From IMG/VR virus record IMGVR_UViG_3300037419_002114: a stretch of DNA of 64,000 bases, one strand, 5' to 3'. The DNA comes from an uncultured virus (IMG/VR IMGVR_UViG_3300037419_002114). Lineage: Duplodnaviria; Heunggongvirae; Uroviricota; Caudoviricetes. The position numbers and the translations under genes are program-made. Position 1 is the first letter of the stretch. Each line of letters opens with the position of its first letter. Positions 6,516 to 32,418 of the stretch are shown here, in pieces. The notes below the pieces were generated by a model, which saw only the letters and a program-made list of their open reading frames with translations, searched no databases and was not told the DNA's origin.

Positions 6516-8841
6516 TTACATCCAACCTTTTTTCGGCTGAATGCTAGACCTTGATTGTTTCAAACCACTAATCGCCATTTCAACACTATCCGGACCATCG
6601 TCATGTGTCGATGCTTTCGCACCAGTACCGAGTCCGAACTGTTCGAATTGATTGATAAGCAAACGATGATTCGGATTGAAACTAAGTTCACCGTTTTCAA
6701 CCATAGGATGCAACATCTCGATACGAGTTTGCTTTCGAGAACGGTTTTGAATCTTTTTCACACGCAAAAACGAAGGATAACCGACTTTCATCAGTTCCTT
6801 CTTTAACGTATCTGTTGCAAACTCTTGCATCATGTTAGCTTCACTACTTACCACCATTGGATCCCATTTTAAAACGAGTTGGATGATATCTTTGATGAAC
6901 TCATCCGGGTGCACACGTTTTAAGTACGAATCAGCGATGAAAAACTTTTTCGTTTTTTTGTCTTGTGCAACGACAGCCACACTTGAATAATCGCCTCGCT
7001 CTTTTCCTGAAGCCCAATCTATTCCAAAAGATATATTGTATTGATCGTGAGGAAATTGCATAAATGGGTCATGATAATTAAAAAGATCGCTATTAAATAG
7101 CATATCTTCTTTATTATATGGAATATTCAAAAACTCGGTAGAGAACGCATGGCTACCGATACTCAACTTCTCAATCATAAGTTTATGATACGGAAATCGT
7201 GAAGGCCACAACACGACCCAATCATCCATATCGTGACGATGTGCTCGGTAAAAATCCATCGCTGCTTTCTCGTTTGGCGATTCCATTTTGCTCGTGGCGT
7301 TTTCGTACTCTTGCATTTCTTCGTCAGTTGGCACATATTCTTTATAGATACGACAGAACTCGTTCCACAAATCTTCACGCGTAGGCTCTTCGATAATAGC
7401 AGGAAACTTATTTCGAATAAAGTCTGCACGTTCTGTAATCACATAATTAAGCAAAGATTCCGGATGAGTCATGGTCCCCATGAAGATTGTTGCACATTTG
7501 GTAACATCTCTTGCCATTTCGTTAGCGTAGTGGCTCTTTATCCACCACCTACAACTTTTCCATCGTTGTAGATCAGACTATCTCTTCACCCTCTATAAAA
7601 GTAGGATGGAACGCACTCGTGGAGATTTCTTCGGTTCTCGAATACTCTCTCTAGTCGTTACACCTTTCTGCTATTCCTAACAGACTTGGCTCGGTATTGC
7701 CCAATCATGGAGGGTTTCACCGAATTCACGTTCTTCATTTATAGAATTACTTCTATAACGCCCAAAGTTTAGGATACATTTCCATGTTAAACCAATCTTT
7801 GTTTTTCTGACGAAGTTCTGCAGTATTATTACTATCTTTTGATTCTAAGTCCACTGTGTTCATGTTGGTTCGCTACGCCAACACCGTGCAAAGCACTGCT
7901 ATATATCGCTATATAGTTCAGACTATATCTTTATCCTAAAAGGATATCCTCCATTTCGAGTCGCTTGACCCTACGCCTTACGGCTAGTCGTTGAACGTTC
8001 AATAACAGGAAAACCTAACTCACTTATGATTTATTACGCTAACAAATGTTTCAGACGATGCAACCTGTTATCGCTTCGCTGCTGATTGTCTACGGGAGAG
8101 TTCCCAGCAATTAAAAGGATTTTACTTGAACAACTTAAACTTATCCAAGAGAATGAGATCCGGACGCTGAGAACCATTACGGATACCTCGAATCTGTTTA
8201 CCCAAAGATGAACAGGCCATCATTGCACCTGTTGTGGTGATAAACATATCCTGTGCGTCTTTTTCATTCTTATTGTTATCTTCATGCAGGAGGATGCCAA
8301 AATCCTCACGAAGTTTTTTATTAAACTTTAACTGACCTGCTACCCACTTTAAGAATTTCATCGAACCTGGCAATGTTTCCGAACAAATCAAAATCATGGT
8401 TCGTTTTCGGTAGACAAGTTCACGAGTCGGAAAACTATTTGATAGGAATGCCGATTTTGCATGACCACGACTTGCACTCCAACAAACGTTTGCCGTTTGA
8501 TTATAGTTTGATACATTATCGAGAATCTTCGATAGCTTAGCGTGAAACTCCGGTGCTTTCGTTACATCAACATCACGGTCCGGAACGAGATTATCAAGGT
8601 TTCCAGGGTTATCATGCTCGCTAAAATACGTATAGAAAAAGTATAAGTGATCGACTTCTGCTCGATGTACGCGAAGAAGTTTCGTCAATTCCGCTTTATC
8701 ATCTTCGAACATATCATAGTGATAATCCGTTGCTTTACCGGACTTAATCAAATCCATCAATTTCTTCAGCTTCTCACGTAGAAGTTTAATTCTCTCTTCT
8801 CTCTCATCTCGATCAAGCCACTTTCCGTTTACATACGCCAT
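6516..8841 (-). CDS. terL: Terminase large subunit, three exons (8841-8143, 7851-7771, 7514-6516; 592 aa spliced)
   Basis: Walker A-like SRGHAKS; splicing restores Walker B RPDLILLD|DLE and MYP|ARDVTKCATIFMGT; C-terminal nuclease GID..GDYS..HDDGPD. Confidence 0.92.
7515..7770 (-). ncRNA. Group I intron 2 in terL (256 nt, no ORF)
   Basis: Exon ends CCT, intron ends ...GAAATG; core GAATTCGGTGAAA, AATACCGAG, AACGACTAG, GAGATAGTCTG; removal keeps the frame. Confidence 0.92.
7852..8142 (-). ncRNA. Group I intron 1 in terL (291 nt, no ORF)
   Basis: Exon ends in U (GAT), intron ends in G; P1 CTTGGAT/GTTCAAG with U-G at splice site; P10 TTTAAGTT/GACTTAGA; core AATTGCTGGGAA, AATCAGCAG, AACGACTA, AAGATATAGTCT. 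Confidence 0.93.
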
Positions 8842-8925: not shown

Positions 8926-9777
8926 ATGTCAGATAATAAAATCACAGTTACTACAGAAGAGTTAGAAAGAATGATACAAGAGCGTGTTGAAGCATTAGAA
9001 AAAGAAAAGAAAGCAAATGGTAAAAAAGATAAATATAAGAAAAATCCAAAGCGTGCTGGTATGCAAGAAGTTTCCCCATTTACTCAAGAGCAAATCAAAA
9101 AGATTTTAGACGATTATGAGAAAAAAATAAAAAAGGCTAAAAAAGAATCTGAACGTCAACAATTACATAGAAACCGTTTAATGTTTTTGATCGGATGCAA
9201 CGTTGCTCTTCGTATTCAAGATTTATTAAGTTTAAAAATTGGTGACGTTCGTTACGGTCGTATTAAAATCCGAGAAATGAAAAATAGCAAAAACAACAAC
9301 ATCAAAATTAACGAACAAATCATGGAAGTTATCGCACAAGTAGAAGGTGATGACTCGGACTTCCTTTTCACCTCACGTGAAACCATATCCTTAGCAAAAA
9401 TTCCACAAAAAGGTTCGAAGTATTACAAAGAAGAAGGAAATCCTACATATGAAGAAATGTGCTCGATGATTGGTCGTCCTCGTCCACTTTCTCGCCAGCA
9501 AGCCCATAAAATCGTTTCAAAGGCAGCAGAAGATATCGGTCTAGTCAAGCGTGCTCCAAAGCAAGCAGGCCAACGTCAAGGTGTTATCATCTACGGAAAC
9601 TACGGATGCCACTCGCTGCGTAAAAGTTATGGAATGGCATTATATGAAGCAGGCGTAGATGTTATCGTCATTAAAGAGTTATTCAATCACTCAGACCACA
9701 AAATTACATACCGTTATATCGGACTTGCCCAACGAGATATGGACAAAGTTCGTGAAGGTATTGCAGTAGGAATCTAA
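8926..9777 (+). CDS. Tyrosine recombinase (Xer/resolvase-like, catalytic domain only)
   Basis: ALRIQDLL (R), HSLRK (HxxR), FNHS (H), TYRYIG (Y); short, no evident arm-binding domain. Confidence 0.9.
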   Translation: MSDNKITVTTEELERMIQERVEALEKEKKANGKKDKYKKNPKRAGMQEVSPFTQEQIKKILDDYEKKIKKAKKESERQQLHRNRLMFLIGCNVALRIQDLLSLKIGDVRYGRIKIREMKNSKNNNIKINEQIMEVIAQVEGDDSDFLFTSRETISLAKIPQKGSKYYKEEGNPTYEEMCSMIGRPRPLSRQQAHKIVSKAAEDIGLVKRAPKQAGQRQGVIIYGNYGCHSLRKSYGMALYEAGVDVIVIKELFNHSDHKITYRYIGLAQRDMDKVREGIAVGI

Positions 9778-15873: not shown

Positions 15874-16380
15874 TTATAACTCTCTAACGGTAAAGCCATA
15901 TTTACTCTTCAAATCATATTCTCGGCAGTATCCCTCTTTAAAATCTTTAAATATGTGCGTAACACTTTCGATTTGCCCATTTTGTACTACGTAGTATTTA
16001 TAGGTGTAATGATATGACCTTACAAATTCCGATATGTAATATATAATTGTTTTATTTTCGGCAAGGTGTCTGATTTTTGCGTAATGTTCAAAATGGTTGA
16101 GTTTTCCTTCTGTTGCCCCTGTGACCAATAGAAGGCGAATTTGTTTGTAAAGTGTGTCAAGGTGTTTTTTGATGGTGTCGTATTGCGTCCAATCCTTTTC
16201 GAACCAATGACGATTTGGTGTAGCCATATCTATAATTTGTAAGGTTTCGTTTTCCTCTTTAAGTAGTAATGCAATTTGTTTACCAGTAACCGACTGTATA
16301 ACGACTTCGATATAGTCGAACTCACCACGAACCTCTAAAACCTCTTTAATATATTTTCTTACTTTTGTTTTTGTTTCCAT
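15874..16380 (-). CDS. Hypothetical early protein (cassette A)
   Basis: Preceded by repeated promoter/leader unit, followed by terminator GAGGGC..GCCCTC. Confidence 0.8.
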   Translation of the reverse strand: METKTKVRKYIKEVLEVRGEFDYIEVVIQSVTGKQIALLLKEENETLQIIDMATPNRHWFEKDWTQYDTIKKHLDTLYKQIRLLLVTGATEGKLNHFEHYAKIRHLAENKTIIYYISEFVRSYHYTYKYYVVQNGQIESVTHIFKDFKEGYCREYDLKSKYGFTVREL

Positions 16381-16541
16381 TATGTATCATCTCCTTTTTA
16401 TTTGTAATTTGTTTCTATCTATATTCAGTATAATTCAAAACAGTTAGAAAGCAAGATTTTGTTTGTTTTTCTTCCCGATCATACTCGGTTTTGTGTCTTT
16501 GGACCCTTCGAAATGCAACGAAAAAGGCGTATTTCTACGCC
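16381..16541 (-). repeat. Early cassette intergenic repeat A (terminator, SigA promoter, leader, RBS)
   Basis: Near-identical to 17103-17258, 17485-17560, 18368-18445: TTGmTT-TCTAACTGTTTTG..TATACT..TAGATAGAAACAAATT..AAGGAGATGATAC. Confidence 0.9.
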
Positions 16542-16834
16542 TTGGAATCGAACAACGTGTACAATCGAACCTCGTTGAACTGTGCTAGGATTTCGTGTGC
16601 AATCTCGGTTTTTTTCGCTTGATTCATCGTTGAATTCCGCCCATTGCATCGAATCCCTTTATATATCGTGAAACGATTCATATCGACAGAGAAATAAAAC
16701 CAATAGTATCTATTTTTATTTCCTTTTAGTTGAAATTTGCCCATAACTGAAAAGGACTCGTAAGGCGTATTTATGCAAAGGTGTTGCGTATCATCAATTT
16801 CTAGGTTCTCGATATGTAAATTAGTTGTTTTCAT
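16535..16834 (-). CDS. Hypothetical early protein
   Basis: GAGG RBS before MKTTNL; ends EVRLYTLFDSKA; stop inside terminator GGCGTAGAAATACGCC. Confidence 0.75.
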   Translation of the reverse strand: MKTTNLHIENLEIDDTQHLCINTPYESFSVMGKFQLKGNKNRYYWFYFSVDMNRFTIYKGIRCNGRNSTMNQAKKTEIAHEILAQFNEVRLYTLFDSKA

Positions 16835-17102
16835 TTTCCTCAGCCTCCTTTTTTGCAACATACTCAAGGAACTCGTCTAGTATGTATTGAAATTCCTTCA
16901 TACCCGTTAAACCTTCAAAATCGCTTTCGTCCTCATCTGTGTAAGGGTTATATTCCGTTTCAAGATACCCAAAGAACCAACCGCCTTCGTCCTCTTCACT
17001 AGGTTCGTCATAGTGAAAGTTTATTGTCAATTCCTCGCCATCGTGCATTACGTTTGCAATTCCAAATTCCGAACCATCATAGTAAATATTATATAAATTC
17101 AT
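16821..17102 (-). CDS. Hypothetical highly acidic early protein (cassette B)
   Basis: Follows repeat unit B; very Asp/Glu-rich. Confidence 0.8.
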   Translation of the reverse strand: MNLYNIYYDGSEFGIANVMHDGEELTINFHYDEPSEEDEGGWFFGYLETEYNPYTDEDESDFEGLTGMKEFQYILDEFLEYVAKKEAEENENN

Positions 17103-17258
17103 AGTATCATCTCCTTTTTATTTGTAATTTGTTTCTATCTACATTCAGTATATATCAAAACAGTTAGAAATCAAGAATTTGTTTTATTCTTCTTTTTAGT
17201 CCCGATCATAAGAAACACACAACCCAAAAACAACAAAAAAGGGCGTATTTCTACGCCC
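17103..17258 (-). repeat. Early cassette intergenic repeat B
   Basis: Same leader, promoter, CCCGATCATA box and GGGCGTAGAAATACGCCC terminator as repeat A. Confidence 0.9.
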
Positions 17259-17484
17259 ATTCTTTGCCGTTTTCTTCCTCGAACAGTTCCGCCAAACCTT
17301 CCGCCAATTCCTCGATTGATTCGATGAATTGGGCTTGGTATTCTTTCGAGTTTGGAAAGGAAATTTCCGCATCGTCCGAATCCATTCGGTACACCTCCGC
17401 CTTTCCATCTAGTAGAGTCACGCGGTAACCGTAATAAAATAGTATTTCCAAATCGCACATGCTTTGTATTAAGTTTATATTCAT
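17251..17484 (-). CDS. Hypothetical acidic early protein (cassette C)
   Basis: Follows repeat unit C; stop inside terminator. Confidence 0.8.
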   Translation of the reverse strand: MNINLIQSMCDLEILFYYGYRVTLLDGKAEVYRMDSDDAEISFPNSKEYQAQFIESIEELAEGLAELFEEENGKEWA

Positions 17485-17560
17485 AGTATCATCTCCTTTT
17501 TGTAATTTGTTTCTATCTGTCTATATCTTATATCAAAATAGTTAGAAATCAAGAATTTGT
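17485..17560 (-). repeat. Early cassette intergenic repeat C
   Basis: TTGATTTCTAACTATTTTG promoter variant and AGATAGAAACAAATTAC..AAGGAGATGATACTATG leader. Confidence 0.85.
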
Positions 17561-17689
17561 TTTTAAAGAAAAAAATAGCGGGATCGAAAATCGTTTTTTC
17601 GTTTCGTCCTCGTTTTTGATTGTCGTTACTGGTTTTTTTATGGTGTGCGTGCTGCGGTGAAGGTAACGAAAAAGGACGTTTCCGCCCTT

Positions 17690-18367
17690 TTAAATCTCGC
17701 CTAGTAGTCGTCCATCTTCCGTATAATATAAATCTATTTCTAATTCCGCCAAGTGTTCCGCCCATTGGTCCGAGGTGTAATAATCCAATTCAGCCGAAAT
17801 GAAAGAATCGATTTCTTCTATATCTTTCGTGTATGCCGCGTCCATCTGATAAAGATACTTACAGAGGATTTCATTTAATAGGTCGAAATCTTCCGAACCT
17901 AGAAAATTCTCAGTCGGACACGTTACCGCCAATAGGCGAATCGATGGAAGGCGACTAGGGTCGTACTTTTCAAGGAATCTATATAGGTTTTCATACGTCA
18001 GCTTTTCGGTGTGCCTATCTTCAAAGGTAAAACTAATTTCTCGTCCTGTATCCGGATTTCCAAACACATTGAAAATTGTTAATCCTAGGATTTCCTCAAC
18101 GTCCGAAAGGAATTCATCGAAGCCGTGCTTTTTATAAAAGTCGTCGTAAATTTCCAATTCATCAATTGAGGTCACACGTCCCAAATCGTCCCAATAAATA
18201 TCGACAAAGCCAAAGTGTATGTCGTCTAAGCAATTAAAGATGTCGTCTTTAATATGGTCAATCTCGCTTGAGTAATCTTTTATATATGCCTTTTTAAAGT
18301 TTTCTAGGGCTGTCTTTTTGGCATCGCCTTTTAATTCGTTATATGTATAAATATTTATTTGTTTCAT
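17690..18367 (-). CDS. Hypothetical acidic early protein (cassette D)
   Basis: MKQINIYTYNELKGDAKKTALE start, acidic, ends YYTEDGRLLGEI. Confidence 0.85.
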   Translation of the reverse strand: MKQINIYTYNELKGDAKKTALENFKKAYIKDYSSEIDHIKDDIFNCLDDIHFGFVDIYWDDLGRVTSIDELEIYDDFYKKHGFDEFLSDVEEILGLTIFNVFGNPDTGREISFTFEDRHTEKLTYENLYRFLEKYDPSRLPSIRLLAVTCPTENFLGSEDFDLLNEILCKYLYQMDAAYTKDIEEIDSFISAELDYYTSDQWAEHLAELEIDLYYTEDGRLLGEI

Positions 18368-18445
18368 AGTATCATCTCCTTTTTTAATTTGTTTCTATCT
18401 ACTAATATAGTACACCAAAACAGTTAGAAATCAAGTTTTTGTTTC
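18368..18445 (-). repeat. Early cassette intergenic repeat D
   Basis: TTGATTTCTAACTGTTTTG promoter and TAGATAGAAACAAATTAAAAAAGGAGATGATACTATG leader. Confidence 0.88.
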
Positions 18446-18857
18446 TTCTTTTCTTTGTCGAAACTCACGCCCTCAACTTTTATGATCGGGACACCTTGGG
18501 CAAAAATTAGGGCTTATTTTCCATTTTTTGGTGTATTTTTGGCTTATTTTTACCCACAAAATTGAAAAATGGGGCGTTTTTGTGAAGATTTGGACCATTT
18601 AAAAAGTAAGGTATAAATACCTTGACCGCTTTTTTTTAAGGGCAAAAAAGGGGCAAAAATAGGGGGTTCTTTTTTGTCGATGTATAGGGGTTTTATGACG
18701 AAAAAACTTTTTCTTTACTTTTTGGATCCTTCCGGTAATATAAAAAGAAAGTCCAAAAAATTGAGTCGAAAAAAGGCGAATTTCTAGGGATTTGTCTAAC
18801 CATGTCAAAAAATCGGTGTACCCGGTTTTATCTCAACATGCCCAAAATCGGACCAAA

Positions 18858-19042
18858 TGGTAAGTAACTTTAAAAGCGTAAGGAGGTGATGAAATGTAAG
18901 ACGCTTACCGTTTGGGTAGTTACTTACCAAAAAGATAGTCACTTACATTTTGTAAGTTACTAAAGGTTTGGTTAGTTACTGTCAATCTTATTAGTTACTT
19001 TTGGTTTGGTTAGTGATTTACTTTTTGTAAGTTACTTACTTT
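18858..19042. repeat. Array of about 10 degenerate GTAAGT/TAGTTACT repeats at ~18-20 bp spacing
   Basis: GTAAGTAACT, GTAAGACGCTTAC, GTAGTTACTTAC, TAGTCACTTAC, GTAAGTTACT, TTAGTTACT x2, GTAAGTTACTTACT. Confidence 0.8.
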
Positions 19043-19057
19043 CTACCCCGATCATAG

Positions 19058-19178
19058 TGATATTATCAAATTGACAACATCAAATTCTAGGGGTGTAAAT
19101 TTACACTTGATATTATTAAAATTACAATGTTATTCTTACAGTATCAAAATACAGGTTTGATATTATCAAAATAACATC
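19058..19178. repeat. Three TGATATTATYAAA boxes at exact 50-bp period
   Basis: Copies start at 19058, 19108, 19158; TGATA-T-TATCA is palindromic. Confidence 0.85.
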
Positions 19179-19530
19179 TTCATTTTACATTATTATTTTG
19201 ATAGGGTTGGGAATAAAATTGACCATTTCTGACCTTTTGGCAAAAATGAGATTTTAGGAAAAAATGCATTTTTTGAATTTGGGGGAAAAAGTAAATCTTG
19301 GTGCTGGGAGAAATCCGCCTATAATCTGCACGTTAGGAGGACCGCAAAAATCGCTTGAAAGTTGGTCGGCGAATTTTTCGAACTTCTTTTTCTTTTTTTG
19401 TTTTCGTTTCTTTTTATTTCGAATGGTTCGCTCTGGCAGCCCATTCTTTTTTTATTTCCGATCGTGATTCTCTATTGACTTCGTTGGATCTTCTCCGATA
19501 GAATAGTAGAAAACACGTTGGGAGAGCGTC

Positions 19531-19890
19531 ATGGACGACAACACGAAACCTTTACCGACTCATGGCGGTATCGTATTCGAATATAAAAAGTCATTTTTCG
19601 AAGCCATATCGAAACCAATCAACAACTATCCGAGAAGCACGCTCATTACATATCTGCACGATGACGAGCGTACATTATGCATTACTTGTGGCAAGATATT
19701 CGATTCGTACAACTTTATCATCTCGTTTAAAAAGAAAGATGGAACGTTCTACTATCAAACACGCACCTATACCGCAACCATCATTCCAGCGAAGTATAAA
19801 GCGTTAAGCAAAAAGATGATGCACGCGTATAACAAAGCATTCATCGATTTGGAAGTAAAAGAAATCCGCCTATTGCATCTATTGTTCTGA
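19531..19890 (+). CDS. Hypothetical protein with C-terminal RLLHLLF
   Basis: TTGACT..TAGAAT promoter, GGGAG RBS, terminator at 3' end. Confidence 0.8.
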   Translation: MDDNTKPLPTHGGIVFEYKKSFFEAISKPINNYPRSTLITYLHDDERTLCITCGKIFDSYNFIISFKKKDGTFYYQTRTYTATIIPAKYKALSKKMMHAYNKAFIDLEVKEIRLLHLLF

Positions 19891-19987
19891 TGCAGGGGCG
19901 GTTCTTTTTTTATGGCTGGCATTGCCTTCAGCTCCAAAAAATAAAATCAAAACTCAAAAATAAAATCGAACCCCTAAAAAAAATGGG

Positions 19988-20093
19988 AGGGGGTCTTTTT
20001 TCCTGGAAGGGGGTAAATTATATAGGCAGGGGGTAAAATATAGCAAGGGGGTAGCATTTTTTTCTAGGGGGTGATATACTGCAACTGAGGGGT
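19988..20093 (+). repeat. Six phased AGGGG(G)T boxes
   Basis: Starts at 19988, 20008, 20028, 20046, 20066, 20088. Confidence 0.85.
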
Positions 20094-20101
20094 GGTTATT
20101 T

Positions 20102-20434
20102 ATGACAATTCAGATCAATTTTAAAAGCCTAATATGGGAAATGACTCAGAGAAACATCTTTGATCACATCAGCGATGAACAAAAAAATAAACTAGAGATC
20201 CAACATTTCACACACATCAACCCAAATATGCGAACGGAGGAACTATTTCCGCCAAAAGAAAACAATCAGCGAAATCGAATCGGTATGGCTGTCTTTGCAA
20301 TGTTCGATTTTCTGCGGTTGAATACAAATGTTGACGCATCCATTACGTACCCAAAACGAAGCGAATACGTAACCTTTCCGACAGTTGCTGCGATATACGA
20401 TTATTTTTACGAATATATTCTCTTTAAAATCTAA
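20102..20434 (+). CDS. Hypothetical protein
   Basis: GAGGGG RBS and TATACT -10 upstream. Confidence 0.7.
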   Translation: MTIQINFKSLIWEMTQRNIFDHISDEQKNKLEIQHFTHINPNMRTEELFPPKENNQRNRIGMAVFAMFDFLRLNTNVDASITYPKRSEYVTFPTVAAIYDYFYEYILFKI

Positions 20435-20625
20435 ACCCTCTTGCATTTGCAGGAGATGATATGCTAAACTATAGAGGAGTTGAAACATAGGGTATAGAAA
20501 CACTCCTCGAAAAGTGCCTGCGGATATGCAGGTATTTTTTTATGTTTTTTTAACAAAATAGTTAATTTTCGTGTATAGTAAAGGGGTAAGAAAACAACAA
20601 AAAAACCTAAGGGGGATATATTCCT

Positions 20626-20874
20626 ATGTCAAAAGTTATTCCATTTCCAGTTCGCACGCGGTTAGATGATATTCAAGAAATGAGTGCTGAGTTTCAAAAG
20701 CCAATCTTCACCGATTACAGTGACGATATGTACGATGCGATGTTTGCCGTTCGCAAAGACTACCAAAAACCAGCATCTGATTTCGTAGAAGTTGAAGCAA
20801 GTCCAGCCGACCATCAAGCCAAATTCGATTTGCTAGAACAAATTGCAAAAGATGTTAAGGAAGGTAGAGCATAA
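20626..20874 (+). CDS. Hypothetical protein
   Basis: AAGGGGG RBS; coupled to the next ORF. Confidence 0.7.
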   Translation: MSKVIPFPVRTRLDDIQEMSAEFQKPIFTDYSDDMYDAMFAVRKDYQKPASDFVEVEASPADHQAKFDLLEQIAKDVKEGRA

Positions 20875-21173
20875 TGGAATACAGTGGATCTTTCCTCATT
20901 GAAAAAGAAAACGAAGTCGTAACGGTCAAATTAAACATCGATCAAGTTACGTTTCCGATAATGGCCATCGGCATTGTTAGAAATGGCAAATGCAACAACT
21001 GGGCAATTTCGCATGAAAGCAGTTACCTGTATCCGTGCACATGTGGGAAAGAACATCTTGAACATGACGACAGAGAACGTTGCACAACATGGAGAAAAAG
21101 TACAAGCCAGATCAAAGAATGGTTGGAATCCAACAGAGATATCCAAAACTTCCTAGAAACCAACTCAAAGTAG
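20874..21173 (+). CDS. Hypothetical protein, possible Zn-binding (CTCG..H..C)
   Basis: TAATG overlap with upstream ORF; terminator AAACCAACT..AGTTGGTTT at end. Confidence 0.7.
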   Translation: MEYSGSFLIEKENEVVTVKLNIDQVTFPIMAIGIVRNGKCNNWAISHESSYLYPCTCGKEHLEHDDRERCTTWRKSTSQIKEWLESNRDIQNFLETNSK

Positions 21174-21237
21174 TTGGTTTTTTTCATGAAAAAAGTTGCA
21201 TTCTAACTGTTTTGATATATGATGGAAGTATAAGGAG

Positions 21238-21567
21238 ATGATAAATATGCGTTATAAAGAATTTACATTATTGGATTGCTGCGTAGAAAGAGAAGGAGAT
21301 TATCAAGGAACAAAATACATGGAAGTAGAAGTGAAATTGGATTTTTATACAGACGAAATTATAGAAATTACATTGCATCAAGATAAAAACAAAGAATGGT
21401 ACGTACATATGATGGGAATAAAAATAGAAATATCAGAAGATGAAGAAATATATGCAGATAGAATTTGGAACTTTTACGAAAAGATATATGATCAAATTAA
21501 CAAACAAGAACTGGTTCGAAAAATAATGGAGCATCCAAAAGCAAGATTATTGTTTTTATTCATATAA
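21238..21567 (+). CDS. Hypothetical early protein, paralog 1 (ends HPKARLLFLFI)
   Basis: TTGCAT-TCTAACTGTT promoter, AAGGAGATGATA leader; likely start 21247. Confidence 0.85.
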   Translation: MINMRYKEFTLLDCCVEREGDYQGTKYMEVEVKLDFYTDEIIEITLHQDKNKEWYVHMMGIKIEISEDEEIYADRIWNFYEKIYDQINKQELVRKIMEHPKARLLFLFI

Positions 21568-21572
21568 AGGAG

Positions 21573-21890
21573 TTGATAAACATGCGGTATAAAGAGTTTA
21601 CCATAACAGAATGCAACGTCATCAACGAGCAAAGCATTCAAAAGAGAGGAAACATGCATCTTCATATTAAAATAGACATTTATGATAAAGAAATCGAAGT
21701 CTTTCTCATGCAAAGTGAAAAAAAGAAGTGGTATGTCAATTCCATCGGTCCGGTACAAAAAAAATACAAATACCAATACATCCCCCACTTTGAATTCAAT
21801 GATGAAATCGGTAAAAAACTTCGCAGAAAAGACATTTTACAAAAAATCATGGAGCACCCACACGCGAGATTACTGTTCTTATTTATCTAA
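21573..21890 (+). CDS. Hypothetical early protein, paralog 2 (ends HPHARLLFLFI)
   Basis: Shares MRYKEFT start and KIMEHP.ARLLFLFI end with the upstream gene; likely start 21582. Confidence 0.85.
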   Translation: MINMRYKEFTITECNVINEQSIQKRGNMHLHIKIDIYDKEIEVFLMQSEKKKWYVNSIGPVQKKYKYQYIPHFEFNDEIGKKLRRKDILQKIMEHPHARLLFLFI

Positions 21891-21963
21891 GGCAGTAATT
21901 TTTTTCTTGCAATTTAAAAATATGGTAGTATATAACAAACAGATAGTAAAGGAGATGATATCT

Positions 21964-22149
21964 ATGAAACAATTTATATACGAAAACAAACTAGAATTGA
22001 TCGGATTTGTATTAGGCGGTATGATTTTTGCTGCCTTCGTACTGTTTATGTCAAAAGAACAAATCCACCAGCACCACATTGTTATTGCCATTGCTTGCAG
22101 TATACCGTTCGCAATGATAAAAGCGTTTAAAGTAGATGATGCGAAATGA
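21964..22149 (+). CDS. Small two-TM membrane protein
   Basis: TTGCAA..TATAAC promoter, AAGGAGATGATA RBS, two hydrophobic segments. Confidence 0.7.
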   Translation: MKQFIYENKLELIGFVLGGMIFAAFVLFMSKEQIHQHHIVIAIACSIPFAMIKAFKVDDAK

Positions 22150-22478
22150 GAATCTTCGAATTACGCACTGATAACGTTGTACATATTTGCTTTACCGATA
22201 GCATTTTTAAGCCACAACGCCAAAAAATTCGCTTTGCAAGCGTTGAAGAAGCCGACTGCTTCGTAAATGTAATGGCAACTGTTCGAAAACTCATCGATGA
22301 AAAATATCGAGGGGATATCGAATGTGCCGTACTGAGTAATAAACGATTGGATCTTTATGTTAAACCGCATATCCAGCGAGAAGAAGTTATCAACTTGATC
22401 GCTAAGATTCAAAAGATAAAGAACATACGACGGTTTATCGAAAAGTATACGACCTTATCCGCTAGAAGCATTAAATAG
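22146..22478 (+). CDS. Hypothetical protein
   Basis: ATGA overlap with upstream ORF. Confidence 0.6.
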   Translation: MRIFELRTDNVVHICFTDSIFKPQRQKIRFASVEEADCFVNVMATVRKLIDEKYRGDIECAVLSNKRLDLYVKPHIQREEVINLIAKIQKIKNIRRFIEKYTTLSARSIK

Positions 22479-22652
22479 AAAAGAGGTGTTTAGGATGCGT
22501 AAAAAATGGCGTAGACGATATAACGCAAAGAAAAGATACCCAAAACCTTCATCATTTGGATTGTTCAAATGGTTTCGGAAATAAAAAGGACTGCATTCAA
22601 ACAGTCTTTTTTATTTTCTAACTGTTTGGTATACTAAAAATGAGGTGAGAAA

Positions 22653-22931
22653 ATGATTGTAAACATGGAAATCGAAAAAGTACGACAGTGGAGTGGCGGA
22701 TATGCAATGAAAATCTTTATCGAATTATTTACTGGAAGAGAGAACACATATAGAGAAACATTTGTGTTCACCGATGAAGATTTACAAATCACAGAAATGG
22801 GAAGCCAACATCACCTAAAAGAAATCATTCAGCAACTCATCACCATTGAAAGACTTGGAATCATAACAGGAGTATTCCAGATCTGGGATGAAGATGTATT
22901 TCATTTTGATGTAGAAAGAGGGTTCTTATGA
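22653..22931 (+). CDS. Hypothetical early protein
   Basis: TCTAACTGTT box and TGGTATACT -10; GAGGTG RBS. Confidence 0.75.
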   Translation: MIVNMEIEKVRQWSGGYAMKIFIELFTGRENTYRETFVFTDEDLQITEMGSQHHLKEIIQQLITIERLGIITGVFQIWDEDVFHFDVERGFL

Positions 22932-23257
22932 AATATGAAATTTTAAAGACAATGCAATCGGACGATGGAAGTTATACAATTCTTTTTGAAAAAATTAAAA
23001 CAGAGGAAACAGAAGAAATACTAGAAGTTTGGAAAGGGTCATTTCCTTCACCTTGGAGTAAGACAAGAGAGTTAGTTATCATGGATAGTGATTTAAAACA
23101 CCTAACGTATCAATCCACAAACGTGTTACCAGGATTTGATGAGTTTTTAAAAAAAGAACGCACTGCTATTATTGTGCAAGGATATGAACTAATGGCAATG
23201 AAAGATGTTCATAAGTTCATGGTGGAGAAAACAACAGAAAAATGGGTATTGGGATAA
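22928..23257 (+). CDS. Hypothetical protein
   Basis: ATGA overlap; bidirectional terminator AAGACCGC..GCGGTCTT follows. Confidence 0.75.
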   Translation: MKYEILKTMQSDDGSYTILFEKIKTEETEEILEVWKGSFPSPWSKTRELVIMDSDLKHLTYQSTNVLPGFDEFLKKERTAIIVQGYELMAMKDVHKFMVEKTTEKWVLG

Positions 23258-23277
23258 GACCGCTCAAAGGCGGTCTT

Positions 23278-23517
23278 TTATTTTGCGTACTTTATCGCTA
23301 GATACGTCTGAAAAAACGGAACATCCTCCCACGCAATGTTTCGCAGCAGGTAACATGTTTCGCAAAGAGTAACGATATTGTCGAGTGAATCGTACCCTGG
23401 AAATGGGTCGTTGCGAATCCGATCAAAATAAGCTTGATGAAAATCTACGTGTTTTGTGCATCGAATACACTGTCGGCCATCACGAATGTAAACGATTTTT
23501 TGAATGTCAACATTCAT
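23278..23517 (-). CDS. Small HNH-like protein (degenerate)
   Basis: VYIRDGRQCIRC...DNIVTLCETC; canonical His residues not evident. Confidence 0.65.
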   Translation of the reverse strand: MNVDIQKIVYIRDGRQCIRCTKHVDFHQAYFDRIRNDPFPGYDSLDNIVTLCETCYLLRNIAWEDVPFFQTYLAIKYAK

Positions 23518-23650
23518 CCGAACACCTTTTTTGCAAGGAGAATGGCTGCGTCCAATCCAACAATGAACAAAATAAAATAAAGCAACGACCATACCAACTG
23601 TTCCGGAAGCTCACGCGGTTTCTTTTTTGTTTTGTACACATAACACCTCT

Positions 23651-23935
23651 CTAAAGTGCTTGAAGTAAAAACAACAATCGATATTTAGGTTGTTCCTGCA
23701 GGTAATCCGTTACTTCTTTTAAAATGGATGCATGCATCTTAGAAGGAATATCTAAATACTCTTCTGTTCCAATCATCCAAAATGCCGATATCTTTTGTTG
23801 GTTTGCTTTTGGGCTGGTAGATTTATAATAAACTACTTGCATCCCATATCGTGCATCGCCAAAATCAAATTGAAAATCAATTAAATAGGAATTTGCCGAT
23901 TCTGTTTCGCAATCAATGCAAATATTTTCGATCAT
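23651..23935 (-). CDS. Hypothetical protein with C-terminal PKYRLLFLL
   Basis: GAGGTG RBS and TATACT -10. Confidence 0.75.
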   Translation of the reverse strand: MIENICIDCETESANSYLIDFQFDFGDARYGMQVVYYKSTSPKANQQKISAFWMIGTEEYLDIPSKMHASILKEVTDYLQEQPKYRLLFLLQAL

Positions 23936-24025
23936 TCCATCACCTCATTGGTTAGTATACCCAATTTAAAAAAAATGTTGCAAATTCTTCTAACTGTATT
24001 ACAATATGCTAAAGGAGTGATAAAC

Positions 24026-24352
24026 ATGAGTGAAAAAATTCTAATTACTCATATTCAGTTACAAGACATAAAGGAACAACAAGGATTCATTAGTTTCAAC
24101 CTTACCGCGTATATTCAAGGACAACTTCGATCGGTCAACGTGATGAAAATAAATGGATATAGCAAGATGATTGTACATAGTGTGAAGGTTGCAAATTTTT
24201 CAAAGGATTCGAAAGGAAATCATGTTGTTAAACTTGGTGCTGACTTCACTCAAAAATATAAGACAGAAGCCAAGAAGCAAATCGAACAAAAAATCTTCCA
24301 CTACTTAGAAGAGGAATGTAAGAAAACAAGATTGTTGCTGCTCTTTGCATAA
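24026..24352 (+). CDS. Hypothetical early protein with C-terminal RLLLLFA
   Basis: TCTAACTGTA box upstream, AAGGAGTGATA RBS, terminator after stop. Confidence 0.8.
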   Translation: MSEKILITHIQLQDIKEQQGFISFNLTAYIQGQLRSVNVMKINGYSKMIVHSVKVANFSKDSKGNHVVKLGADFTQKYKTEAKKQIEQKIFHYLEEECKKTRLLLLFA

Positions 24353-24402
24353 AAAAAAGAAACCGTATCTAAATCGATGCGGTTTTTCTCTGTTATACTA
24401 AT

Positions 24403-24497
24403 AAAAAGAACCTTCGGAGATAGAGCCGAAGGTTAGATAGAAATAAATATATGGAGTTGATACTTTTAATGTGGATCTAGCGAACTTGCATTCGCAT
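24403..24497 (-). ncRNA. Candidate ~95-nt trans-acting sRNA antisense to early-gene leaders
   Basis: TTGACA(24531-24526)-16-TATAAT(24509-24504); 5' hairpin GCGAA..TTCGC; terminator AACCTTCGG..CCGAAGGTT-CTTTTT; middle complementary to TAGATAGAAA..GGAGWTGATACT. Confidence 0.7.
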
Positions 24498-24527
24498 ATC
24501 TTTATTATATCGATATGGTTTTGCTTG

Positions 24528-24920
24528 TCAATATGTTTTTCTACGAAATCCTGCTTTTTGAATATCATCTTCTTTTTCAAGAAAATACATAAAAGCATCG
24601 ATTTTATTTTTCATGTCACGAGGGAGAATTTCACCCTTCGCATTTGTCATCTGATTGAACAACCACATCAACATGCCAGCAACAAATTGACTTCGATTAT
24701 TCGGAACATCATCCATCTTATAATTCGCTTCCATCGTGTCGAGCACTTGATCGAAATACGTCAGCAAATCTTCCGGTAGCTCCAATTCCACTCGTTTCTT
24801 TTTTACCTTTCGTGTTTTCGTATTCTTGAATCGACACACGTCCATCATATGAAGCGTGCTAACAAATGCTTCACGCTGGGCATTACTATATTTCTTTCCA
24901 TTTGATTTAGTATTTGCCAT
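24528..24920 (-). CDS. Putative ribbon-helix-helix DNA-binding protein
   Basis: KKRVELELPEDLLTYFDQVL..NRSQFVAGML strand-helix-helix pattern; AGGAGGTG RBS. Confidence 0.6.
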   Translation of the reverse strand: MANTKSNGKKYSNAQREAFVSTLHMMDVCRFKNTKTRKVKKKRVELELPEDLLTYFDQVLDTMEANYKMDDVPNNRSQFVAGMLMWLFNQMTNAKGEILPRDMKNKIDAFMYFLEKEDDIQKAGFRRKTY

Positions 24921-25206
24921 TTCTCTCACCTCCTACTTCAAATGGTACATCAAAACAGGAAAAAATCAACAAAAACGTACGTTATTTTCAATATCGTTAT
25001 TTTATCGTCAACATACGGACGTTAATTTTATAATCCGAATGTTGATTGCAACGTCATGGAGATACGAAAAATACGCACAAAAAGGGTCATTTTTGACACT
25101 TTTACGATCGCTGACGATACATTACCTTAACTTGCAATGTCGAAAACCTTGCGGATAATGTCGAAAAGCCGGAACTTAACTGTTTTGTGTACAAAATATG
25201 AATCTA

Positions 25207-25234
25207 GTAAGACATAATGTAGTTTTACGAACCC
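25207..25234. other. dif-like 11-6-11 tyrosine recombinase site
   Basis: GTAAGACATAA-TGTAGT-TTTACGAACCC; reverse complement GGGTTCGTAAA ACTACA TTATGTCTTAC resembles Xer dif arms. Confidence 0.65.
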
Positions 25235-25415
25235 TTTTTTGTACCGGAAATAGAATCAATTACAGTTAGAATCTACTTCTACGGATAGTCCGTTTTATGA
25301 ATATCCATCCTTTAAGTGGGATGCGGTAGCAGAACACTTAAAGGACTGGCTGCCAGAACATTTTCGTTGCAAAAACACAAATCGGAGGTACAATAAAACA
25401 GAAGGAGGTGGCCAC

Positions 25416-26288
25416 ATGCAGACGCTAAAATACTATGACATTCGAAATCAAGAGTTCAAGATGCTAGGAGAGAAGATACAAAAGGCTAGGCAGATACAGC
25501 GTATCTTTCTAAAAGGAAATAACATACGTCATCATTATGAATACGTAAGTTTTAAGCAAGATGTATTCGATCATGAATTTGATAACAATCGTGTTTGGAT
25601 TGCAACCTATATGCATTCTGAAAATGAAAAACAACAGGACTTTGCATTTATTGACGATGAGGAATTTGGAATCTTCTGCTTCATGGTAAGTTTCCGAAAC
25701 AATGTCGTGAAGTATTTAAAAGATGACCATTTCCAGTCGCTTTATCGAACGGCAAAAGGGGAATTATATGAAAAGGAAGAGGACAAGTATCTTGCCATCG
25801 TAAAAAAAGCACTTGAATGGGAAAAACCAAAGTGGAATGTAGACATCACTAAAAATACAACCTCGCATAAAGAACTAACAATGAAGTTCTCGACTGACAG
25901 ATACATCTATGAAGCACAAGAGTTCTTCAATAAAATAGAAACCACGTTTGATAAAACATCCTTGCGTTCTTATGTCGATATCACAATTCATACAGGAAAG
26001 TTTAACCGACACAAAAAAGAAGTTCTCTATTATATGGAATTTGAACGTAAAGTACATAAACGCATTCACTTTCTCATTAAACTATACAAATTAAGCACGA
26101 CCCAACGCAGAATCTACTTTTTGTTGCACGATCGATATTACGATTATCACATCGATCTGATTCGAGAGTATAACGATATTGTATTCAACCTCGGACAAAA
26201 GCATCGGATACTGGAAACGAATATCTACGCATGCAGATTATCAGAGTTTGGACAAGCAGGGTTCAATGCGTTCAAACCGCTTTATTAA
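25416..26288 (+). CDS. Hypothetical protein
   Basis: TTGCAA..TACAAT promoter, AAGGAGG RBS, terminator after stop. Confidence 0.8.
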   Translation: MQTLKYYDIRNQEFKMLGEKIQKARQIQRIFLKGNNIRHHYEYVSFKQDVFDHEFDNNRVWIATYMHSENEKQQDFAFIDDEEFGIFCFMVSFRNNVVKYLKDDHFQSLYRTAKGELYEKEEDKYLAIVKKALEWEKPKWNVDITKNTTSHKELTMKFSTDRYIYEAQEFFNKIETTFDKTSLRSYVDITIHTGKFNRHKKEVLYYMEFERKVHKRIHFLIKLYKLSTTQRRIYFLLHDRYYDYHIDLIREYNDIVFNLGQKHRILETNIYACRLSEFGQAGFNAFKPLY

Positions 26289-26400
26289 GGCACTTTTAAA
26301 AAAAGTGTCTTTTTCTATTTATTCCCTGATCATTTCCTATTGCTTTCTTTTTATAGAAAATGGTATAAATGTAACAGGAAAACTTTTAGGAGGGAAAACA

Positions 26401-26823
26401 ATGATATTCCACAAAGATGCGATTGACTTTGAAGTATCACTGACAGATTGCTACTTGCCTTACATCGGACCAAAGGCTTATGGATATTTTATGTTTATTA
26501 CACGTTTCAGTGAATGGAACAATAAAGGAATCAGAGTTTCAAATACAAAAAGAAGCGAAATACTGAAAAAGATAAGAATGAGCACAAAAACAGTCATTCA
26601 CATCGAAAAAATACTTGAAGCAACAAACCTAATCAAACTAAAAAGGGAATCGCAAGGAAGAGGAAACAGAACTATCGTCTATGAAATTTACAATCCTCTG
26701 CAAGAAGAACAATTCAAAAAGGTAGAATCTGAAATAAAGGAAGCATTGGTAGACTTTGCGGAAACATATCCTAAAGGGGCAACACTTCTAGGGAACGAAA
26801 TTAGAAAAAGAATGGGGCGATAA
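26401..26823 (+). CDS. Winged-HTH replication-associated protein (DnaD-N-like)
   Basis: YLPYIGPKAYGYF..ILKKIRMSTKTV..LEATNLI; AGGAGG RBS at MIFHK. Confidence 0.6.
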   Translation: MIFHKDAIDFEVSLTDCYLPYIGPKAYGYFMFITRFSEWNNKGIRVSNTKRSEILKKIRMSTKTVIHIEKILEATNLIKLKRESQGRGNRTIVYEIYNPLQEEQFKKVESEIKEALVDFAETYPKGATLLGNEIRKRMGR

Positions 26824-26824
26824 A

Positions 26825-27154
26825 ATGCCTATCATAAGAAGCGAAAAGCAAGGCGGTAATTTTGTCGTTTCGGATAAGGGATATGTTGAAGATGAACGTT
26901 TATCATGGCAAGCAAAGGGTATCATGATATACGCCTTATCAAAACCAAACAATTGGAATCTTTTCATAAAAGACTTAATAAATCAAGCGACAAATGGAGA
27001 ACACGCAGTAGGACAAGCATTAAAAGAGTTAGAAAAATTCGGTTATCTATACCGAAGAAGAAACCGAGGGGCAAGTGGAAAGTACAACAACTATGAAACC
27101 TTCGTCTACGAATCACCAAAACTGAATCCTTTTTTTTCAGAAGAAACCACCTAA
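26825..27154 (+). CDS. Phage replication initiator N-terminal HTH domain (apparently truncated)
   Basis: NFVV..DERLSWQAKGIMIYALSKPNNW..ALKELEKFGYL..VYESP. Confidence 0.75.
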   Translation: MPIIRSEKQGGNFVVSDKGYVEDERLSWQAKGIMIYALSKPNNWNLFIKDLINQATNGEHAVGQALKELEKFGYLYRRRNRGASGKYNNYETFVYESPKLNPFFSEETT

Positions 27155-27157
27155 ACG

Positions 27158-27275
27158 TGATTTTCCTGTTCTGGATAATCCTAATTAGGAAAATCCTAAA
27201 CTGGATAATCGCCTAGTAATAAATAATTACTTAAATAAAGAATTACTTAAATAAGTAATTAAAGAAATAAAAAAT
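27158..27275. repeat. Probable replication origin: 15-bp iterons plus AT-rich repeats
   Basis: TGATTTTCC / GGATAATCC / GGAAAATCC / GGATAATCG at 15-bp period, then AATTACTTAAATAA twice. Confidence 0.65.
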
Positions 27276-27503
27276 ATAGTGCATTTGATTCTTTTTCCAA
27301 TTCAAAAGCAATGGTTTTATGTTTTCAAATCTTTTAAGATAATGATAATGCTCGAAAACACGTTTTCTCGCATAAAGATAAAAACATAACGCTTCGCTAG
27401 AATAGGTCAAAATCAAAAGAAAAAAAGACGCTTCGCTAGTAAAGTTCAAAAGATTAAAACCTTCCCTTTTAACAGGAAAAAGAAAAGATAAGGAGAAAAC
27501 AAA

Positions 27504-27902
27504 ATGGCAAAGCAAAAACTACCACCAGCTTCAGATTGGAAAGAAAGAAAACTTGAAAATTGGAACACGACCACCTTCATCGCATACATGCAAGATATGA
27601 ACCAAGAAAAGTACAACTTGCCATATACACCATTCGCTGGAATAATGGCAGAAAAAAGAATGTTGAAACTAGCTCAGGAGGAAATGGGTAACCAAGTATT
27701 GAAAGAACTTATTGACCTAGCATTTAAAGAGAAGAAGCAGAGTGAAAGAAATCTTTGCTTAAATTACGGATTCATTCATACGTATATGAAACCTTCTCTT
27801 TATCCACGCATCATTAAAAAAATACAAGAAGAGGAAGAAACAAGAAAGCGTGAAGAAAACAAAGTCATCAAAAGCAAAGAAGAGTTAAAAAAGTTCTTTT
27901 AG
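27504..27902 (+). CDS. Hypothetical replication-module protein
   Basis: AAGGAG RBS; upstream of the helicase loader; WNTTTFIAYM motif. Confidence 0.7.
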   Translation: MAKQKLPPASDWKERKLENWNTTTFIAYMQDMNQEKYNLPYTPFAGIMAEKRMLKLAQEEMGNQVLKELIDLAFKEKKQSERNLCLNYGFIHTYMKPSLYPRIIKKIQEEEETRKREENKVIKSKEELKKFF

Positions 27903-27912
27903 GAGAGAGAAT

Positions 27913-28230
27913 ATGACAGAGAAAGAAAGACAGGTACTGCAAGATGTTCGCAATTACACGCAGGATATTATTCTTGTTCCAAAGCCCATTATTTCCCCTC
28001 TCCATCGTGACAACTTAGAAATCATCTTCAAGGTGCAGAAAGAATATCCAGGATTCGTTGTTTTGATCGGAGAACTAAAAGCAGACGATACGTTCAATCC
28101 GCACATGTCGATGGTGAGTTGGATACCGAATTGGGATTTCTACGGCAACAGTATCAACTATCTTCTTTACGATAAGATGTACAACCGTTTTCGATTGGAT
28201 CTTTTATTTTTACCGATAAAACGTACTTAG
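27913..28230 (+). CDS. Hypothetical protein with C-terminal RFRLDLLF
   Basis: AGGAG RBS, in operon. Confidence 0.7.
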   Translation: MTEKERQVLQDVRNYTQDIILVPKPIISPLHRDNLEIIFKVQKEYPGFVVLIGELKADDTFNPHMSMVSWIPNWDFYGNSINYLLYDKMYNRFRLDLLFLPIKRT

Positions 28231-32043: not shown

Positions 32044-32418
32044 ATGAAAATTATTAAAGGTGAAATTTACTTGGTGGATCTTGGTGATAACTCAAGAGGG
32101 TCAGAACAAAAAGGAATCCGCCCATGTGTTATCCTACAAAATAACATTGGAAATCGATTCTCAACGACAACCATCTGTGGATTACTCACAACAAAAGAGA
32201 AGAAAAACAAAAAGAAAAAACACTTTCCAATGCATGTTCCAATTCAGAAATTAGCCATTGAAAAAAATGGTTTACAAAGCGATTCACTCCTTTTATGCGA
32301 ACAAGTATTTACGATTTCAAAAGATCGATTGATAAAACGTTTAGGGGTCATCACACCGACCTCACCACTGATGAAACAAATTGATGAAGCACTCAAAATT
32401 AGTTTTGGGATTCAATAA
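32044..32418 (+). CDS. PemK/MazF family endoribonuclease
   Basis: GEIYLVDL..GSEQKGIRPCVILQNNIGNRFS..DSLLLCEQVFTISKDRL. Confidence 0.92.
   Translation: MKIIKGEIYLVDLGDNSRGSEQKGIRPCVILQNNIGNRFSTTTICGLLTTKEKKNKKKKHFPMHVPIQKLAIEKNGLQSDSLLLCEQVFTISKDRLIKRLGVITPTSPLMKQIDEALKISFGIQ

Follow-up and report, generated by a model that had tools for sequence, protein, structure and literature searches.

We analysed a stretch of 64,000 nucleotides (the window) from an uncultured tailed virus, IMG/VR record IMGVR_UViG_3300037419_002114, and found that seven of its small proteins end in a common peptide, R-L-x-x-L followed by phenylalanine or leucine (the tail). The pattern RL[LYD].L[FL] was present in the last 20 residues of exactly seven of the 301 open reading frames (ORFs) of at least 50 amino acids (aa), and all seven are located at 16.5-28.2 kb. 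The motif is very likely real and private to a small phage lineage. Judging from the structure models described below, the seven tagged proteins probably form one diverged family rather than a set of unrelated modules. We tentatively propose that this family combines a fast-changing body with a constant contact peptide for one partner. An earlier reading made from the letters alone (the sequence-only reading) had quoted seven C-termini and two internal variants of the motif, and all nine stretches were found in the sequence as quoted.

The tagged genes, named here by their first coordinate, all have a Shine-Dalgarno site at a proper distance, and these positions give likely protein sizes of 94-119 aa. 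Two of the genes are on the minus strand. The 16535 gene (16535..16837) encodes 100 aa from an ATG with an AGGAGG ribosome-binding site, while its ORF runs from a TTG at 16867. The protein ends in ...EVRLYTLFDSKA, with RLYTLF at 16550-16567 and four residues after it. The 23651 gene (23651..23935, 94 aa) ends in ...QPKYRLLFLLQAL, where RLLFLL at 23663-23680 is followed by QAL. The other five genes are on the plus strand. The 19531 protein (19531..19890, 119 aa) ends in ...KEIRLLHLLF, with RLLHLL at 19867-19884 and a final F. The 21238 gene (21238..21567; 109 aa, or 106 from an ATG behind AAGGAG) and the 21573 gene (21573..21890; 105 aa, or 102 from an ATG) encode paralogs that are 40% identical (E 1.5e-25). 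Their tails are ...MEHPKARLLFLFI and ...MEHPHARLLFLFI, with RLLFLF at 21544-21561 and 21867-21884, each followed by I. The 24026 gene (24026..24352) encodes 108 aa from an ATG behind AAAGGAG, within an ORF that runs from a TTG at 23948, and ends in ...KKTRLLLLFA, with RLLLLF at 24329-24346 before the last A. The 27913 gene (27913..28230, 105 aa) is located between the phrog_6154 gene and the gene for a DnaC-like loader and ends in ...RFRLDLLFLPIKRT, with RLDLLF at 28192-28209 and six residues after it.

We then defined the motif from ten tails, the seven above and three from a related phage locus, L006. The arginine was invariant (10/10), the next position was L in nine tails and M in one, the fourth position after the arginine was always L, and the fifth was F in seven, L in two and I in one. 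Positions +2 and +3 were variable and allowed charged residues, and between zero and six residues followed the motif. Seven of the ten tails have K, R or H two residues ahead of the invariant arginine, and in all ten 3 to 7 hydrophobic residues come after that. The arginine and leucine codons vary among the seven window copies, so what the genes share is a peptide sequence rather than a repeat in the DNA. Since nothing common was found past the stop codons either, a DNA repeat, terminator or promoter lying over the gene ends is ruled out. The paralog pair shows the same at finer scale. Of the last 15 codons of the 21238 and 21573 genes, 14 encode the same residue, seven of them through synonymous differences, compared with 20 of the 80 aligned codons in the middle and nine of the first ten. 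A tail kept at 14 of 15 residues with seven synonymous differences indicates purifying selection at the protein level and not recent gene conversion. The shared element is thus a peptide kept by selection, which supports this part of the sequence-only reading.

The search for relatives of the region yielded few close ones. Scans with the helicase, the loader and other proteins returned 50-odd loci. IMG/VR contained one near-identical contig, L006 and distant loci, and a metagenome scan contributed four distant loci. Two genome scans for more relatives found nothing, nor did a megablast of the region against phages. L006 is only a moderately close relative, with a helicase 54% and a loader 47% identical to those of the window, and with the same gene order around the replication genes. 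In the 10 kb upstream of its helicase gene, two proteins carry C-terminal tails, ...HHRLRLLKLFSKETVK and ...KSYRMELLFKN, and a third, encoded just past the helicase, ends in ...KKKRLETLI. Two L006 paralogs hold QIRLELVSG and KRLELISG internally. None of these tail-bearing and internal-variant proteins of L006 matched a window protein by blastp at E 0.05. The related phage therefore keeps the motif on proteins that are otherwise unrecognisable as relatives. Using the relaxed pattern R[LM]..L[FLIVM] within the last 16 residues, we counted 6 of 96 proteins in the window (plus the second paralog) and 3 of 30 in L006, compared with 4 of 1472 in the other loci. Under the stricter tail form of the sequence-only reading, L006 has only one.

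Other genes of the window also have counterparts in L006. In a blastp comparison with L006, L051, L053 and L054, the proteins of 24528-24929(-) and 25416-26288(+) were the main ones to have a match in L006 and in none of the other three, at 30% identity (E 7e-11) and 24-32%, respectively. Weaker matches shared with L006 were obtained for the 20626-20874 and 29022-29807 proteins. The N-terminus of the 24528-24929 protein shows a pattern that we take to be like that of ribbon-helix-helix regulators, with no family match. L006 furthermore has two MazF-like genes, L006:1466-1888 and L006:13798-14256, the former lying between two tail-bearing genes, L006:1065-1370 and L006:1965-2309.

We next determined how unusual the motif is within the window, using a crude, greedily chosen set of non-overlapping genes with 96 products and 19,207 aa. 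RL..L[FL] occurred six times in this set, and all six occurrences start in the last 16 residues, where only 5.6% of start positions fall (binomial 3e-8). Over 2000 shuffles of whole proteins, occurrences averaged 0.066 and never exceeded 2. When residues were shuffled within each 20-residue tail, which preserves its composition, the average was 0.18 and the highest count 4, and none of 20,000 shuffles reached six. Since the motif had been defined after being seen, we also ran tests that do not assume it. Among exact four-position patterns the top count was four tails, which was equalled in 44 of 300 shuffles. When one two-residue position was allowed, RL..L[FL] was the best of all patterns with six tails, a count reached in 23 of 400 shuffles (family-wise p about 0.06). 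A BLOSUM62 clique test found only the trio of 21238, 23651 and 23948 (the 24026 gene), a size matched in 22 of 60 shuffles. A home-made expectation-maximization search returned an RLLFL-type consensus whose likelihood was matched in 22 of 45 shuffles at width 6 and 7 of 45 at width 8. Neither of these two tests separated the real tails from shuffled ones. The signal within one genome is borderline. For the window and L006 together, the same enumeration gave 7 of 126 tails, which was reached in 6 of 500 shuffles (p 0.012). The enrichment over shuffled tails that the sequence-only reading had called for is thus clear when the motif is given and borderline or absent when it is not.

Several look-alikes were found away from protein ends. 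Two early genes on the minus strand contain internal variants, whose membership in the tag set is uncertain. The 15874..16380 gene (168 aa) encodes KQIRLLLVTG, with RLLLVT at 16120-16137 and 81 residues after it. The 17690..18367 gene (225 aa) encodes PSIRLLAVTC, with RLLAVT at 17921-17938 and 76 residues after it. The sole relative of the 17690 protein (P0006, 57-60% identical) keeps RLLAVTCP, within a protein that is well conserved throughout. An untagged early protein of 92 aa, encoded by 22653-22931(+), has IERLGIITG after a helix-like stretch, which resembles the internal variants IRLLLVTG and IRLLAVTC and the IRLELVSG of L006. A 110-aa early protein, encoded by 20102..20434(+), ends in ...YEYILFKI, which is possibly a decayed tail that has lost its arginine, on the basis of position and visual inspection. 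This gene precedes the 20626 gene, and likewise the tagged L006:1965-2309 precedes the L006 homolog of the 20626 gene. The head scaffolding protein of 62-796(-) begins with MKFERRMSPLF, an N-terminal fit to a relaxed R-M-x-x-L-F that contains a proline and is probably due to chance.

To establish how the tagged proteins are related to each other and to known proteins, we compared sequences and predicted structures. None of the seven reached the threshold of a curated family in Pfam, PHROGs or NCBIfam; sub-threshold matches were to WYL_2 (E 0.0035), GerPC (0.042) and phrog_23540 (0.0061). The large-database searches covered the 21238 and 19531 proteins and a profile of the 21238/21573 pair. In a search of 5.8 billion proteins, the 21238 and 19531 proteins each found only themselves, and an exhaustive HMMER search with the profile against 1.84 billion proteins returned only the two window proteins. 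The 21238 protein had no tblastn match in 50,697 phage records. Comparing 28 proteins with each other (378 pairs) by blastp and single-sequence hhalign recovered only two paralog pairs. The next-best hhalign matches were restricted to the tail (21238 with 23651, last 19 columns) or to the internal variant, where the KQIRLLLVTG stretch of the 15874 protein aligned with QIRLELVSG of L006:6601-7008 (E 1.6e-3, 21 columns).

Structure models cover two of the seven tagged proteins. AlphaFold2 predicted the 21238 protein from a two-row alignment with a predicted local distance difference test score (pLDDT) of 82 and a predicted template modelling score (pTM) of 0.75. The model has strands at residues 11-22, 25-34, 37-48 and 54-61 and helices at 69-84, 89-98 and 100-106. 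Its pLDDT is 84-93 at residues 11-60 and 71-100, 76 at 61-70 and on average 60 at 101-109. The model of the 24026 protein, made from a single sequence, is weak (pLDDT 60.6). It has strands at 7-18, 21-30, 33-43, 54-60 and 66-70 and a helix at 80-100, with residues 103-108 under 50. Both models run from a beta-meander to a C-terminal helix and then to the motif, which begins 0-3 residues past the last helix. In both, the tail has the lowest confidence, except for the N-terminal residues and a loop at 46-50 in the weaker model. The ESM Atlas holds its own confident model of the 21238 protein (pTM 0.77), and Atlas folds were treated as leads only. Foldseek gave no match at E 0.001 or better in the PDB and BFVD. 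With VIA-align, the two models scored at best Z 4.8 (to SpoVG) and Z 4.6, and their top matches did not overlap, which amounts to a generic sheet-plus-helix likeness only. Homodimer prediction of the 21238 protein returned 'no answer' with a score of 0.00 and bears neither way. For the five proteins without models we discarded Chou-Fasman predictions, because this method assigned only 41% of structured residues correctly when compared with the better of the two AlphaFold models.

These results change the picture of the bodies. The sequence-only reading had described the N-terminal parts as unrelated, and outside the one paralog pair they indeed share no sequence likeness beyond the tail. Conversely, the seven proteins are alike in size and the two that were modelled share an architecture, which suggests that they are probably one diverged family. 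The same reading had named a single divergent fold with the motif buried in its core as an outcome that would refute it. Half of this, the single fold, now appears probable, while the models place the motif at the edge of the fold and not in its confident core.

The genomic setting is that of a tailed phage, as indicated by PHROGs annotation of 56 larger ORFs in the window. Head, portal, terminase, baseplate, tape-measure and lysis genes are on the minus strand at both ends of the window. A plus-strand block encodes a RepO-like initiator, the phrog_6154 protein, the DnaC-like loader, a DnaB helicase, a MazF-like protein (32044-32418(+); phrog_1936, 3.6e-25), ribonucleotide reductase, dUTPase, thymidylate synthase and a sigma factor. 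In the protein database, the contig that carries the tagged proteins has 68,995 bases, so the phage is about 69 kb and the window covers most of its genome. Phages of Paenibacillus and Bacillus have helicases 43-45% identical to this one, which points to a host in the Bacillota. The terminase large-subunit gene is in pieces, 6516-7517 and 8122-8841. Two matches to the group I intron family Rfam RF00028, 7549-7781(-) and 7899-8219(-) with 73.6 and 79.8 bits, lie between these pieces; the gene is split by introns. Near it are HNH endonuclease genes (5417-6445) and an integrase-like gene, 8926-9777(+).

The early region, at 14.3-28.2 kb, is crowded with small genes that have no matches in the three family collections, and Rfam and tRNA scans found nothing in it. 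All seven tagged genes belong to this early set, and each has a copy of a repeated promoter cassette ahead of it or close by. The core of the cassette, TTCTAACTGT, occurs exactly seven times, all in the early region and in the orientation of the genes: 16440-16449(-), 17160-17169(-), 18420-18429(-), 21201-21210(+), 22616-22625(+), 23988-23997(+) and 25262-25271(-). With one mismatch allowed there are 18 matches compared with 5.8 expected, including a copy at 17538-17547(-). The cassette looks like a promoter, with TTGAT or TTGCA, then the core, then TTTGATATA. Its minus-strand copies are followed by a near-identical leader, tagatagaaacaaattacaaa...aaggagatgatac-ATG. It is probably the early promoter of the phage, with an operator or a shared 5' leader. 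We considered the start region AGGAG..TGATAAAYATG of three tagged genes as a sign of paralogy and rejected it, since it belongs to this promoter-leader cassette and is found at untagged early genes too. A separate, perfect sigma-70 consensus (TTGACA, 16 nucleotides, TATAAT; 12/12) is located at 24531-24504(-), just past the stop of the 24528-24929 gene. About 70 nucleotides downstream is a terminator-like hairpin at 24434-24409(-). Together, the two could specify a short RNA between divergent genes, for which there was no Rfam match.

Having placed the tagged genes, we asked what the tail might do. The reading we favour, tentatively and at somewhat less than even odds, is that of a protein family restricted to this lineage, in which the body changes fast while a contact peptide for one partner stays the same. 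The tagged genes would constitute an early multigene family private to this phage lineage, encoding proteins of about 100 residues. Each body would consist of four or five antiparallel strands and a C-terminal helix, and the bodies would have diverged past sequence recognition. The last 7 to 12 residues would keep basic-x-x-R-L-x-x-L-[F/L], with a spacing (i, i+1, i+4, i+5) that would place R0, L1, L4 and F5 on one face of a short helix. This peptide may contact one partner shared by all, most probably a machine of the host. The variable bodies would thereby be brought to one hub, or would themselves be handed to it. Of the docking peptide and adaptor logic put forward in the sequence-only reading, the selected peptide, its position outside the confident fold and its retention in L006 are supported, the unrelated modules are not, and the partner stays a proposal.

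The sole lead to a partner, the N-terminal domain of host ClpC, comes from a short resemblance to Gp53 of phage SPO1 and would make up only a small part of the weight we give to a contact peptide. Gp53 is an early adaptor-like protein that binds the N-domain of Bacillus subtilis ClpC, stimulates its ATPase, competes with MecA and is itself degraded (PMC6873191). In the same account, only L83, V87, R94, L95 and K101 are conserved across five homologs, and V87A, L95A and R94E lower ClpC binding (PMC6873191). The Gp53 sequence at R94-L95 reads R-L-Q-I-L-V, which fits R-L-x-x-L-hydrophobic. Gp53 resembles the tagged proteins in being an early protein of small to medium size, and it is one of the host-takeover proteins of a Bacillus-type phage. 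Conservation in the Gp53 family is nearly confined to one short helical stretch, with an R-L pair needed for ClpC binding (PMC6873191), and this stretch closes a first part of about 100 residues. In contrast to the tails, the stretch is internal, with 122 residues after it.

A more elaborate version of the contact-peptide reading, and an unlikely one, has the tagged proteins as interchangeable adaptors. Their beta-sheet bodies would grip different host or defence proteins, and the R-L-x-x-L-F tail would plug all of them into one host machine, for instance the ClpC N-domain, re-aiming host proteolysis or another hub at many targets. Adaptors of the SspB type are similar in combining a substrate-binding body with a short peptide at one end, through which they dock to the N-domain of an AAA+ unfoldase (PMC7226468). 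They differ in that the tagged proteins have no long flexible linker in the models, where the motif comes directly after the last helix, and in that the ZBD consensus given there, L-K-x-small hydrophobic, is unmatched by the tails (PMC7226468). A second comparison is with sliding clamps. The gp45 clamp of phage T4 receives client tails on the polymerase, gp33 and gp55. There, as proposed here, a similar terminal peptide is found on several different proteins of one phage and a single partner reads it. The T4 carriers, however, are known enzymes and factors and the hub is encoded by the phage, whereas the tagged proteins are orphans and the window yielded no candidate for a hub encoded by the phage. 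Bacillota are not known to have SspB.

Several observations weigh against a contact peptide, in addition to the borderline or failed tests that do not assume the motif. Only two lineages carry the motif, so that co-variation is not assessable. The +4 leucine of Gp53 (L98) is not conserved, being K in SP8, and the likeness comes down to three to four positions. When 14 proteins were compared with a four-member Gp53 profile by hhalign, the best probability was 3.3%, and no match fell at residues 83-101. Of 29 SPO1 host-takeover proteins, gp53 was the only one with R-L-x-x-L-hydrophobic, and the looser pattern was also found on gp49, as R-M-N-T-L-M near the N-terminus. With one of 29 carrying the pattern, SPO1 has no multi-protein tag in its takeover module. 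A very hydrophobic tail such as LLFLFI would also be unusual for a solvent-exposed docking peptide. Finally, the shared size and architecture are also compatible with a purely structural role of the tail.

Such a structural role is possible, though we consider it rather unlikely. The tail would be an element of one fast-diverging paralog family, a last helix turn or strand that packs on its own sheet or builds homo- or hetero-oligomers, and would be the slowest-evolving piece without any outside partner. The 94-119 aa of all seven proteins and the two models, both with the motif directly after the C-terminal helix of a beta-meander, agree with this. So do the strong hydrophobicity of the motif and the internal look-alikes RL.L[VI][ST]G, which, in both phages, stand at the end of a similar helix within longer proteins. 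The conservation of nine of the first ten residues between the paralogs would fit a packing of the two ends together. Conversely, the tail is the least confident part of both models, with the exceptions given above, and it tolerates zero to six residues of any kind after the motif. Buried core positions also seldom stay identical, as the arginine and the +4 leucine do in all ten tails, while all other core positions drift past detection.

It is unlikely that the tail is a membrane-targeting peptide, in which basic residues and a short hydrophobic or amphipathic helix take early proteins to the cell membrane. C-terminal helices target MinD and FtsA to the membrane in this way. No protein hub would be required, and the composition of the tails is compatible, with their preceding K, R or H and their hydrophobic residues. 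Known targeting helices, however, conserve character and not exact residues, whereas the arginine and the leucines at +1 and +4 are nearly invariant here, and several tails offer only 5-6 residues of hydrophobic surface.

A little less probable again is that the tail is only a degron, through which a host protease would clear early proteins at a set time, with no delivery of anything else. In bacteria, a non-polar C-terminus is a classic destabilising signal, and the carriers are products of the early region. The degradation of SPO1 Gp53 by ClpCP (PMC6873191) also agrees. The conserved part, however, is not at the very end, and the zero to six variable residues past it argue against recognition that depends on the terminal carboxylate.

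We consider it improbable that leucine- and phenylalanine-rich tails of an AT-rich genome were taken for a motif post hoc. The shuffles that match the exact patterns, the enumeration, the clique and the expectation-maximization likelihoods in the window would allow this, but the composition-preserving shuffles never reach the observed count, all six occurrences are C-terminal, the motif recurs in L006 and in the joint unbiased test, and strong purifying selection acts on the tail in the two paralogs.

Least probable is a variant sliding-clamp-binding motif that takes the proteins to host DnaN. This is a form of the contact-peptide reading that we list separately only because it names the hub. 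The clamp-binding consensus is QL[SD]LF or QLxLx[LF], with hydrophobic residues at positions 2, 4 and 5 (PMC12867686). The tails resemble it in their terminal position and L-x-LF character: it is likewise a short hydrophobic motif ending in L-F at a protein end, by which different proteins use one ring-shaped hub and which phages exploit, as Mu does with terminal clamp motifs on MuC and Mor (PMC12867686). The PHROGs scan of 56 window ORFs (E 1e-5 or better) matched no DNA polymerase or sliding clamp, so the phage probably uses the host replisome. The likeness to QL[S/D]LF noted in the sequence-only reading is nevertheless poor: all ten tails (7/7 in the window, 3/3 in L006) have R in place of the hallmark Q, R-L-x-x-L-F is longer by one residue between the hydrophobic pairs, and the carriers are orphans without a recognisable DNA-related domain in Pfam, PHROGs or NCBIfam.

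In full-text literature searches we found neither the motif nor any tail common to several orphan early proteins of a phage described. Terminal peptides that share a hub are well known for clamps and AAA+ adaptors and have hardly been described for orphan early phage genes. Either outcome is modest until the partner is found. If the tail is a piece of the core that stayed conserved while the fold diverged, it shows how paralog families hide among orphan genes. If it is a docking peptide, it would give a handle on seven proteins of no annotated function at once and would exemplify a multigene family of a phage in which the body varies and the plug stays constant.

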